NCBI GenBank assembly: GCA_037444705.1
Contig: JBBILY010000004.1
Coordinates: 1 to 48,688 of the forward strand
Reading direction: 5' to 3'
Length of the DNA: 48,688 nt
DNA from: Chloroflexota bacterium
GTDB lineage: Bacteria; Chloroflexota; Anaerolineae; Anaerolineales; UBA4823
Numbering within the stretch: the first letter of the stretch is position 1; every line of letters begins with the position of its first letter. Positions 11,429 through 30,263 of this stretch are shown one piece after another. The notes under the pieces are model-generated. The model saw only the letters and a list, made by a program, of their open reading frames with translations. It was not told the DNA's origin and made no database searches. Made by a program: the position numbers and the translations under genes.

Positions 11429-12515
11429 GGCTGCTCTTTAAAAACACTTGCAGGTGATCAAAGATAGTCTGGATAGCTTCCAGACGCGCCGTATAGCGCC
11501 GTTCTTCATCGGGCTCCAGGGTTAGATGCACAAGACCCGCCAGGCGCAGAGCGTTGAGATGATGAGTGACCGTGGGAGCCCGCAGGCGCAGCCGTCGCGC
11601 CAGTTGGGCGGGCGTCAAAGATTCTTGCGCCAGGTAGCGCAAAATGCGCAAGCGTGTCGGGTCTGCCAGGGCTTTAAGGGCGCGCAACATCGTATCCGGG
11701 ATGATCTCCCCTGGGATCAGGGAGACCTCGGTTGGCCGCACTCCGAACATAAAGAGCATCTGATCCGGGCTAATATGGGTGAAGAGCACCAGAGGTGTGC
11801 TCCAAAAAACCGGGACTAAAATCAACTCGGAGGTTTTGAGTGTGGTTTCGAAATGCACGCCCTGGGACAACTCTACCAGTAACTCAGCCGGGCTCAATTT
11901 TTTAGCCAATTCCTGAGCGCCTGTCAACCCGCTCTGAAGATAGGTAGACAGGCGTTTCTCCTCGTCGGCAAAGAAGACCTGATAATAGGACTGCAAGGCT
12001 GATAAGACCAATTCACCGAACGCCTCGGGCTGCGCCCACCAATTCAAAAAGCGGGGCAGAATTTTCTGGACCTGGGCACGTTTGTGCTCTTGCACAGCGC
12101 GCTTGAAATCTTCTACATCTTTTTCGTCCCAGCGGCGCTGATTAGCAACCCGTTTCAGTAACTGAGCTACCTCATCTTTTGTTTCGGGATTGATTACCAG
12201 AACCTGAGGGCGTTGCTCAGGCGGCAGGCGGCGTAAAGCCCACAGCGCGCTAAGGGCATCCTTGGGTGAGGTGAGGTTGTAAACCCAATGATATGGCCAG
12301 ATGAAAGGCTGCACTTCTTCTAAAAATTTGCGTTCAACGGGGGGTAAGCGGGAGCGCACCCCCGCCGCCCAGGAAGGGCGTAAGCCATAGGCTTCAGGTT
12401 CATGCAGCACCTCCAGGCTGATGAAAAAATCATAGGCAGTGCCCACATCCCACCTGATGTTGGGGGTGAACATAGCCTCATTAGAGGTGTGCTTTAAATC
12501 TTTTGACCTTTTCAT
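11409..12515 (-). CDS. ArsR-family wHTH transcriptional regulator with a long (about 270 aa) N-terminal domain
   Basis: C-terminal LKALADPTRLRILRYLAQESLTPAQLARRLRLRAPTVTHHLNALRLAGLV is a canonical ArsR/SmtB HTH. Start ATG 12515 follows AGGAGG by 5 nt and overlaps the upstream ORF stop (ATGA). Confidence 0.8.
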   Translation of the reverse strand: MKRSKDLKHTSNEAMFTPNIRWDVGTAYDFFISLEVLHEPEAYGLRPSWAAGVRSRLPPVERKFLEEVQPFIWPYHWVYNLTSPKDALSALWALRRLPPEQRPQVLVINPETKDEVAQLLKRVANQRRWDEKDVEDFKRAVQEHKRAQVQKILPRFLNWWAQPEAFGELVLSALQSYYQVFFADEEKRLSTYLQSGLTGAQELAKKLSPAELLVELSQGVHFETTLKTSELILVPVFWSTPLVLFTHISPDQMLFMFGVRPTEVSLIPGEIIPDTMLRALKALADPTRLRILRYLAQESLTPAQLARRLRLRAPTVTHHLNALRLAGLVHLTLEPDEERRYTARLEAIQTIFDHLQVFLKSSHDFQKD

Positions 12516-12721
12516 ACGCCCTCCTGCGCGCATTCATCCAGAGATGAGCCTGATTTCAGCCTGTTCCCCAGGGCGACCAGAAGATCGCCTAAAGCGAAAA
12601 GCAGGCGGTCTCGCCACCCAGGCGAGTGCCAATAGAGGTAACGTATGGCACGTTCGGTTTGCGCCATACGTATCAATTCCTGGTGATGTTCATGAGCATA
12701 GCGATAGTACCACTCGTTCAT
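12512..12721 (-). CDS. Small hypothetical protein (69 aa), first gene of the ArsR-MFS operon
   Basis: GGAGG lies 5 nt upstream of the ATG. There is an ATGA stop/start overlap with the ArsR-type gene. His/Tyr/Trp-rich N-terminus and a hydrophobic stretch LLFALGDLLVALG. No family recognised. Confidence 0.55.
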   Translation of the reverse strand: MNEWYYRYAHEHHQELIRMAQTERAIRYLYWHSPGWRDRLLFALGDLLVALGNRLKSGSSLDECAQEGV

Positions 12722-12772
12722 ATCTGCCTCCTTAGAAACCCAGATATATGCCTAAGAAAGACGCTGCTCTAA

Positions 12773-12790
12773 TTTAGATAATTATCTAAA
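12773..12790. promoter_or_regulatory. Perfect 18-bp palindrome; candidate operator
   Basis: TTTAGATAATTATCTAAA is its own reverse complement. It lies immediately downstream of the predicted -10 of the minus-strand operon. A further ATCTAAATA half-site sits at 12907-12915 upstream of the OsmC-like gene. Confidence 0.45.
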
Positions 12791-12793
12791 TAG

Positions 12794-12822
12794 ATAATAA
12801 CCTAAATCTGTTCCTGTGTCAA
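12794..12822 (-). promoter_or_regulatory. Sigma-70-type promoter for the small-ORF/ArsR/MFS operon
   Basis: On the minus strand: TTGACA (12822-12817), a 17-nt spacer, then TATTAT (12799-12794). Confidence 0.5.
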
Positions 12823-17838: not shown

Positions 17839-17872
17839 GCCTCCCGCCAGGAACTCAGCGGGAGGCTTTTTT
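17839..17872 (+). terminator. Intrinsic terminator after the pepF-like gene
   Basis: GCCTCCCGC-caggaactca-GCGGGAGGC forms a 9-bp stem followed by TTTTTT. Confidence 0.75.
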
Positions 17873-17899: not shown

Positions 17900-18604
17900 T
17901 TATGGCTTCCAAACTTCCCAGACCTTACCCACCAATGCAGGGCTGGGTTTCAGTGTGATCTGGCCTGGTTGCCAGCCTGAGGGTGTCACCTCACCTGTGG
18001 CGCGTACGTGCTGAAAAGCTTTGATCTGGCGGATCAATTCATCTGGATTGCGCCCTACTTCCGGGGTCAACACTTCCATGGCGCGGATGACGAAGTCGGG
18101 GTCTATGATAAAGCGCCCGCGGATGTCAACGCCCGCTTCTTCGTCATAGACGCCATAGACAGCGCCGATCTTGCCGCCGGCATCGGCCAACATGGGGAAG
18201 GGCACCCCACCCGGCGTCATGCGGGATAATTCTTGCTCTTGCCAGACTTTATGCACGAAGCGGCTATCCGTGCTGACGGCCAGAACTTCCACCCCCAAAG
18301 CCTTCAATTCCTCATAACGGACGGCAACTGCCGTCAATTCGGTCGGTCAAACAAAAGTGAAGTCCCCCGGATAGAAGCAAAGCACAATCCATTTGCCTTT
18401 GTAGTCCGAGAGTTTAATCGGTTGAAAGCCAACACCTTCGATGTAGGCGTTGGCTTCAAAATCAATGGCTTCTTTGCCGACGCGGGCGAACATTTGGCTT
18501 ACCTCCTGTGATAGTCTGATTTCTTCCGTTGAGGCGGCGGATTCTCGTAGGGGCACAATTGGCCCACGCGCAGGTTTAACACAGCCGTCTTTGAGTTCTG
18601 GCAT
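17900..18604 (-). CDS. Peroxiredoxin (AhpC/Prx1-type) with in-frame TGA at the peroxidatic position: probable selenocysteine-containing peroxiredoxin
   Basis: Track ORFs 18347..18604 and 17900..18337 share one frame, separated only by TGA (18349-18347). Read-through gives ...[43 protein letters not shown]..., the universal FTFVCPTE active site with U in place of Cys. The probable start is ATG 18493 ([23 protein letters not shown] 8 nt upstream), giving Sec49. An upstream in-frame ATG at 18604 also has AGGAGG 6 nt upstream. Confidence 0.8.
18320..18335 (-). other. Candidate bacterial SECIS hairpin
   Basis: mRNA: UGA-CCGACCGAAUU-GACGGC-AGUU-GCCGUC. A 6-bp GC-rich stem begins 11 nt after the UGA, and the apical tetraloop contains GU. 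Flanking AA/UU could extend the helix around a small internal loop. Confidence 0.5.
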
Positions 18605-18702
18605 AGAAACCTCCTTTAATATATTGCTTCAGATAAGATTGTGTTGATAACGGTTCTCAGAGCGGCTCGTTGTGGGGTAACATTGAAACAACTTTCACAA
18701 TG

Positions 18703-18730
18703 ATTATATAACCACCTCATGGAAAGTGAA
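18703..18730 (-). promoter_or_regulatory. Candidate promoter for the peroxiredoxin gene
   Basis: On the minus strand: TTCACT (18730-18725), a 16-nt spacer, then TATAAT (18708-18703). Confidence 0.4.
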
Positions 18731-30065: not shown

Positions 30066-30263
30066 AGACATGCCTCCAGTGGCGTGAATCATACCACGAA
30101 ATCAGGCAGCCCTGGTAAAGTTTTTGAGATGCAATTTTATATACAGGATGCAATTTGGGAATACTTTCTTTTCCCAAGAGTTTCCAAACGCACCCCAGGT
30201 AATCCTGATGAACAAAGGCCAAGGCAGCATTGAACAGGAGTATAATCTGCGGGAGGTTGAGCC

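Follow-up and report, generated by a model that had tools for sequence, protein, structure and literature searches.

A predicted selenocysteine peroxiredoxin gene (prxU) with a conserved coding-region hairpin in a Chloroflexota contig

Results

The prxU reading frame and the family of its product

The DNA analysed here (the window) is a stretch of 48,688 nucleotides from a Chloroflexota bacterium (contig JBBILY010000004.1). Its minus strand carries at 17900..18604 the gene prxU, which was assigned by translation, Pfam and NCBIfam to the selenocysteine (Sec) peroxiredoxins of the AhpC/Prx1 type. The gene consists of 234 codons followed by TAA (17902-17900). The reading frame, which opens with the ATG at 18604, contains a single internal TGA at codon 86 (18347..18349, minus strand) and no other stop or frameshift. 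This codon, predicted to specify Sec, is located at the peroxidatic position of a PxxxTxxU motif (P79, T83, U86) that is unbroken in the window protein (P79-G-D-F-T83-F-V-U86; context GDFTFV-U-PTE). Homologues of the Cys form have TGT or TGC at this position, consistent with the original prediction that the TGA replaces the codon of the peroxidatic cysteine. The TGA is followed by 148 sense codons, one fewer than the 149 first counted.

In the mechanical list of open reading frames (ORFs) the gene is represented by two entries, 18347..18604 (85 aa) and 17900..18337 (145 aa). They share one frame, as would be expected for a single gene split by ORF calling. Alternatively, each ORF could have a product of its own: an N-terminal peptide of 85 residues and a C-terminal protein of 145 residues, initiated independently at the TTG at 18337. 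ORF callers deliver exactly these two ORFs, and 145-aa entries do exist in the databases. However, this TTG falls within the conserved motif as well as within the hairpin region described below, and, as judged from the alignment with Prx2 and AhpC, such a split would cut the thioredoxin fold through the active-site helix. Moreover, the hidden Markov model (HMM) of the family crosses the junction in one stretch. Two separately initiated products are extremely improbable, and the proposal that prxU is one gene was borne out.

When Cys was placed at the position of the stop, the translated product matched the Pfam family AhpC-TSA (8.5e-38) and the 1-cysPrx_C domain. The NCBIfam equivalog NF040737 (peroxi_PrxU) scored 376 bits from Met1 (cut-off 270) and was aligned over model positions 2-230 of 233, which places the product in the PrxU selenoprotein family, as had been suggested. 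The next-best family, AhpC (TIGR03137), reached 190 bits and thus stayed below its cut-off of 272. Scoring NF040737 from Met38 gave 358.8 bits. Since the model is covered nearly end to end from Met1, the ATG at 18604 is a real start, and the long N-terminus belongs to the architecture of the family.

The best solved homologues were typical 2-Cys peroxiredoxins (human Prx2, AhpC; PDB 7kj1, 1qmv, 1we0; E ~1e-48), which aligned over residues 40-221 of the window protein and have the motif DFTFVCPTE and the conserved Arg in common with it. All sequences of the homologue alignment A2 have the catalytic Arg (R162), which in the window protein stands in the context IRGRF (R162). Unlike the 2-Cys enzymes, the window protein has predicted Sec for the peroxidatic Cys, EVTPSGW for EVCPAGW, and an extra N-terminal extension. 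The C-terminal resolving Cys of the EVCPxxW motif, which characterizes typical 2-Cys peroxiredoxins, is absent from EVTPSGW. The window protein has the fold and the active site of Prx1/AhpC, without the Prx1/AhpC resolving mechanism.

The likeness to PrxU (NF040737) of Eubacterium acidaminophilum extends to the peroxidatic Sec in a TxxU motif, the lack of a canonical C-terminal resolving Cys and the presence of a hairpin in the coding region soon after the UGA. The window protein represents the long form and is extended at its N-terminus by 37 residues, among them an invariant Cys. The E. acidaminophilum protein, which we take to be about 203 residues long, would correspond to the short form. 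The hosts differ as well: E. acidaminophilum is a clostridial amino-acid fermenter, whereas the window, to judge from the nearest relatives, probably derives from an Anaerolineae-like member of the Chloroflexota.

Conservation of the TGA codon and of the sequence beyond it

The window gene was compared with the 80 best species-level prxU loci (L001-L080; one genome per species), which are 71-84% identical to it. Most of these relatives are metagenome-assembled genomes (MAGs) of Anaerolineae and other Chloroflexota, but Desulfothermobacter (Firmicutes-like), Desulfacinum hydrothermale and Desulfothermus are also represented, along with MAGs or isolates assigned to Thermodesulfobacteriota, Nitrospirota, Acidobacteriota, Planctomycetota and Armatimonadota. 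The aligned Sec codon was TGA in 80 out of 80 relatives.

The closest entries in the protein database are of two kinds. Entries of 145 aa (P0098, P0107, P0117 and P0120; 86-90% identical to the window) begin just past the TGA, and full-length entries (P0001-P0005, P0083 and P0111) have W at the Sec position (FTFVWPTE). The W is a gene-caller artefact, and it implies that short contigs were translated with a TGA=Trp code. Public gene calls of the PrxU family are systematically wrong, being either cut at the TGA or provided with W. True Cys forms do exist: for P0008, P0010, P0026 and P0042 a TGC or TGT codon was confirmed in the DNA. Pairs of Sec- and Cys-containing homologues serve to define selenoprotein families (PMC13188914), and in the sequences compared here PrxU has such a pair in its TGA orthologues and Cys-form homologues.

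The sequence past the TGA evolves as a coding sequence. In comparisons of the window with 60 relatives, 0.166, 0.078 and 0.572 differences per site were counted downstream of the TGA at the first, second and third codon positions, respectively, with 83% amino-acid identity. For the six nearest relatives dN/dS after the TGA was 0.03-0.06 (Nei-Gojobori), and the few amino-acid changes specific to the window were all conservative. These values indicate strong purifying selection on the codons after the TGA, in line with the earlier remark that peroxiredoxin-like sequence continues beyond it.

The low dN/dS also bears on the possibility, raised with the original prediction, that prxU is a pseudogene. 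According to this explanation either the Sec trait was recently lost or a TGY codon mutated to TGA, and only an inactive fragment of 85 residues is made. The fact that no Sec machinery was seen in the window would fit. However, TGA is ancestral in all relatives, and therefore no new nonsense mutation needs to be assumed. Nor are there further stops or frameshifts in the frame; at pair 25-38 of the unbroken hairpin an A-U compensates for G-C, and the substitutions unique to the window are conservative. We consider a recent pseudogene very improbable. Given the unbroken frame and hairpin, a very recent loss of the Sec trait in the lineage of the window is likewise unlikely.

A covarying hairpin downstream of the TGA

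The candidate Sec insertion sequence (SECIS) element is a hairpin encoded on the minus strand at 18320..18335. It is composed of the arm GACGGC (18335-18330), the loop AGUU (18329-18326) and the arm GCCGUC (18325-18320). The stem starts 11 nt past the UGA, and with the 6-nt arm added to this spacer the loop begins 17 nt past it. The hairpin is therefore present as it was first described, at the same distance from the UGA and with GU in its loop.

In the bacterial SECIS (bSECIS) model an upper stem of 4-16 bp carries an apical loop of 3-9 nt, the first or second position of which is a G, usually with G or U after it; the loop lies 16-37 nt from the UGA, and the minimum free energy is -7.5 kcal/mol or lower (PMC13188914 Fig. 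2). The window hairpin has a 4-nt loop (AGUU) on a 6-bp stem, G at the second loop position and a UGA-to-loop distance of 17 nt. Its folding energy is -10.4 kcal/mol for the 20-nt hairpin and -13.2 kcal/mol for the 48 nt from the UGA. All four constraints, together with the covariation in relatives described below, agree with the proposal that the hairpin matches a SECIS element in position and type.

The consensus of the hairpin in the alignment of 81 sequences is GGCGGC-GGUC-GCCGCC. Its GGUC loop is the same as that of the E. coli fdhF SECIS, where the loop lies 18 nt past the UGA (K-12 genome) as compared with 17 nt here, and the AGUU loop of the window is a covarying variant of the GGUC common to the two. 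In contrast to fdhF, the PrxU hairpin is only a perfect 6-bp stem, without a long lower helix or a bulged U, and corresponds to the minimal upper stem-loop.

Across the 81 sequences 95.9% of the cells were paired. The number of double-change cells was 52, as compared with 12.6 ± 2.7 in shuffled alignments, and none of the 500 shuffles reached the observed values. When the register was slid by 1-3 nt, only 1-14 double changes were found. The pair 27-36 (numbering of alignment A1) is formed by the wobble bases of two Ala codons. It was GC in 54 sequences, AU in 21, CG in two and UA in one, and in the remaining three it was not a Watson-Crick pair (UC twice, the wobble pair GU once). When a neighbour-joining tree was built from the remainder of the gene, this pair underwent about 18 changes of state along it, and its single sides 17 and 16. 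The two sides thus change coincidentally, which points to many independent compensatory events rather than to one inherited change. Positions 30 and 33 at the borders of the loop also covaried (G..C in 57 sequences, A..U in 20), while G31 and U32 between them were invariant in all 81. In the window, codons 91 and 95 encode Thr and Val (ACG and GTC), where the consensus has Ala at both (GCG and GCC); this converts pair 25-38 from G-C to A-U. At these two codons the protein sequence appears, from the alignment, to co-vary so as to keep the RNA hairpin.

Genetic code and selenocysteine machinery

Of the 29 other genes in the window with family support, 8 end in TGA, as do 18 of the 81 prxU orthologues. 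TGA is thus an ordinary stop, and the genetic code is not reassigned. An organism-wide reassignment of TGA to Trp or Gly might be inferred from the many database members of the family that read FTFVWPTE. As discussed above, these calls are artefacts on short contigs, and no other gene in the window requires read-through of a TGA. To our knowledge, neither Trp nor Gly is able to serve as a peroxidatic residue. Taken with the use of TGA as a stop, this leaves a reassigned code with next to no probability.

E. coli SelA, SelB and SelD served as tblastn queries in a search of the window and of 84 loci for components of the Sec pathway. Apart from a weak SelD match of 24% in L017, the only match was a selD gene in the relative L030 (Anaerolineales). 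The L030 gene (~11750-12795, minus strand) is located about 1.1 kb from prxU. The encoded protein shares 43% identity with E. coli SelD, and an in-frame TGA occupies the active-site position (AG-U-AAK), which makes it a selenoprotein SelD. Because L030 has this Sec-type selD beside prxU, the carriers of prxU include demonstrable Sec users. No tRNA-Sec was found near prxU in the loci of 60 relatives.

Weighing of the evidence

Several observations speak against a functional Sec gene or reduce the weight of the hairpin. In the 48.7-kb window selA, selB, selD and tRNA-Sec were not found, and a scan of the window for in-frame TGA codons yielded no other convincing selenoprotein gene or read-through. 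The folding energy of the region 18290-18352 is ordinary (z = 0.31; folding was equal or better in 118 of 200 shuffles), so that the hairpin gains its significance solely when the relatives are compared. The Ala-Ala-Val-Ala-Ala codons dictate part of the stem, and for this reason the synonymous sites are the informative ones. The four Cys-form relatives compared keep 3-6 of the 6 pairs because the Ala and Val codons are self-complementary, and this control hence does not discriminate between Sec and Cys forms.

Two standard searches of RNA structure gave little. With the alignment of 81 sequences RNAalifold predicted only the inner 3 pairs, a weakness on account of which the 6-bp stem was tested explicitly by the pair counts given above. 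A scan of the whole window with Rfam at the gathering threshold found only a tRNA-Leu and no SECIS match. One further in-frame TGA, at 30104, was considered and rejected; from its sequence context it was read as two adjacent genes.

Balanced against these points are the family membership, the conserved TGA, the constraint on the codons beyond it and the covarying hairpin. We conclude with high confidence that 17900..18604 is a genuine, functional prxU selenoprotein gene with a SECIS element.

The N-terminal extension and the internal start

The extension of the window protein contains a conserved block (18557-18589) with a cysteine, Cys8, encoded by TGT (18581..18583, minus strand). An N-terminal extension with this block and Cys was present in 80 of 80 relatives. 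In the 75 orthologues that could be parsed the Cys8 codon was TGT or TGC, never TGA. The fractions of non-consensus bases in the block were 0.15, 0.11 and 0.53 at the three codon positions, showing that it evolves as coding sequence.

A distribution of cysteines by length was seen among 120 database homologues. The N-terminal Cys was found in 43 of 50 long forms, none of which had a C-terminal Cys, and 18 of 61 short forms had a Cys near the canonical resolving position (EVTPCGW); some of the "short" entries may, however, have mis-called starts. This pattern suggests that Cys8 is an alternative resolving residue. The statement in the original prediction that no resolving Cys is present was correct for the canonical C-terminal position (VTPSGW) but may not hold for the protein as a whole, where the invariant Cys8 is a candidate. 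None of the solved peroxiredoxin structures aligned before query residue 34, leaving the extension without a solved counterpart. In the AlphaFold model of a Cys-form relative the core had pLDDT values above 90 and the N-terminal 40 residues only 50-74.

Another cysteine, Cys76 (18377-18379; IVLCFYPGD), precedes the Sec position by 10 residues; at least 90% of the aligned homologues share it. Where a short form has a C-terminal Cys, the residue at the position of Cys76 is Phe.

An AGGAGG stands before each of the two in-frame ATG codons, as had been noted; the distance is 5 nt for 18604 and 8 nt for 18493. The Shine-Dalgarno (SD) sequence of the first start is located at 18610..18615 (minus strand). 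Of the 75 parsable orthologues, 69 have an SD-like motif of 4-6 nt ahead of this start (AGGAGG in 37, GGAGG in 16, AGGAG in 14 and GGAG in two). The internal AGGAGG (18507-18502) and the ATG at 18493 (Met38) occupy 18491..18507 on the minus strand and represent a candidate second start, in frame, for a form of 197 aa. At the same place AGGAGG was present in 64 of the 81 orthologues and GGAGG in a further 13 (77 of 81 together). In most of them it stood 5-8 nt before an in-frame ATG or GTG; the distance was 2 nt in L062 and L075. The residues encoded by the internal SD vary (QE, EE, KE, ME, RE, GG and others), and the rest of the linker around it shows no conservation. To judge from these sequences, the internal SD points to a retained second initiation site, and prxU possibly gives rise to two isoforms. 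It is conceivable, though rather doubtful, that these would be a 234-residue enzyme forming a Cys8-Sec86 selenenylsulfide and a 197-residue form devoid of a resolving residue.

The literature search, which did not cover the original PrxU paper, found no report of the N-terminal Cys or of the internal start. The Cys of the extension and the conserved internal SD and start may be new observations.

Flanking sequences and distribution of the gene

Upstream of prxU a consensus scan detected a putative promoter-like site, TTCACT-16-TATAAT (18703..18730, minus strand; 10 of 12 matches). On the other side the gene is followed by the convergent gene pepF. Between the pepF stop (17823) and the prxU stop (17900), 28 nt past the latter, a strong hairpin of the form GCCTCCCGC-N10-GCGGGAGGC followed by T6 was read from the sequence (17839..17872, plus strand) and is predicted to be the terminator of pepF. 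It was missing from the list produced by the scan because its loop exceeds 8 nt. The hairpin is probably a terminator common to pepF and prxU, or a bidirectional one.

The neighbourhood of prxU is not conserved among the relatives, in which only pdxST (L070) and pepF (L027) recurred. The gene is found at 71-84% identity across many phyla and in unrelated gene neighbourhoods. This suggests that prxU spread horizontally, with the reservation that the taxonomy of some MAGs may be unreliable.

Discussion

How prxU would be expressed and how its product would act can be outlined by analogy with known systems; for SelB binding, Sec incorporation and the peroxidase chemistry we infer the following steps. 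As the ribosome approaches UGA-86 of the prxU mRNA, SelB carrying Sec-tRNA(Sec) and GTP would bind the hairpin loop with its exposed G-U, as in the known bacterial pathway (PMC13188914). When the ribosome reaches the UGA, SelB would deliver Sec in place of termination, and the 148 remaining codons would be translated. In the folded enzyme Thr83 and the conserved Arg would activate the selenolate, which would reduce H2O2 or an organic hydroperoxide and would itself be converted to a selenenic acid (PMC8533274). The selenenic acid would then be recycled by a thiol, perhaps that of an external reductant such as thioredoxin. Alternatively, recycling may be performed by the invariant Cys8 through a selenenylsulfide.

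Sec-containing peroxiredoxins are well established. The first to be purified came from Eubacterium acidaminophilum (Sohling et al. 2001, as cited in PMC13188914), and Sec peroxiredoxin, with its TxxU motif, is counted among those prokaryotic selenoproteins that have experimental support (PMC13188914). Genes of this kind numbered 43 in the survey of the Sargasso Sea (PMC1088965), 12 in the early genomes (PMC1794560) and 91, from 78 organisms, in a later survey (PMC5029168). Since these first surveys the family has ranked among the more abundant bacterial selenoprotein families, and the window gene adds no new biology in this respect. As PrxU has been purified and surveyed, and is described by a curated model that includes the N-terminal extension, the present finding amounts to the correct rediscovery of a family member already known.

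Its value is in annotation. The locus should be annotated as one selenoprotein of 234 residues with a translation exception at codon 86. Calls of prxU as two fragments, as a pseudogene or as a Trp read-through are to be avoided.

For the organism, prxU marks a likely selenium user with selenium-dependent defence against peroxides. For the family, the N-terminal Cys and the internal start provide small, testable leads on how Sec peroxiredoxins may be recycled.

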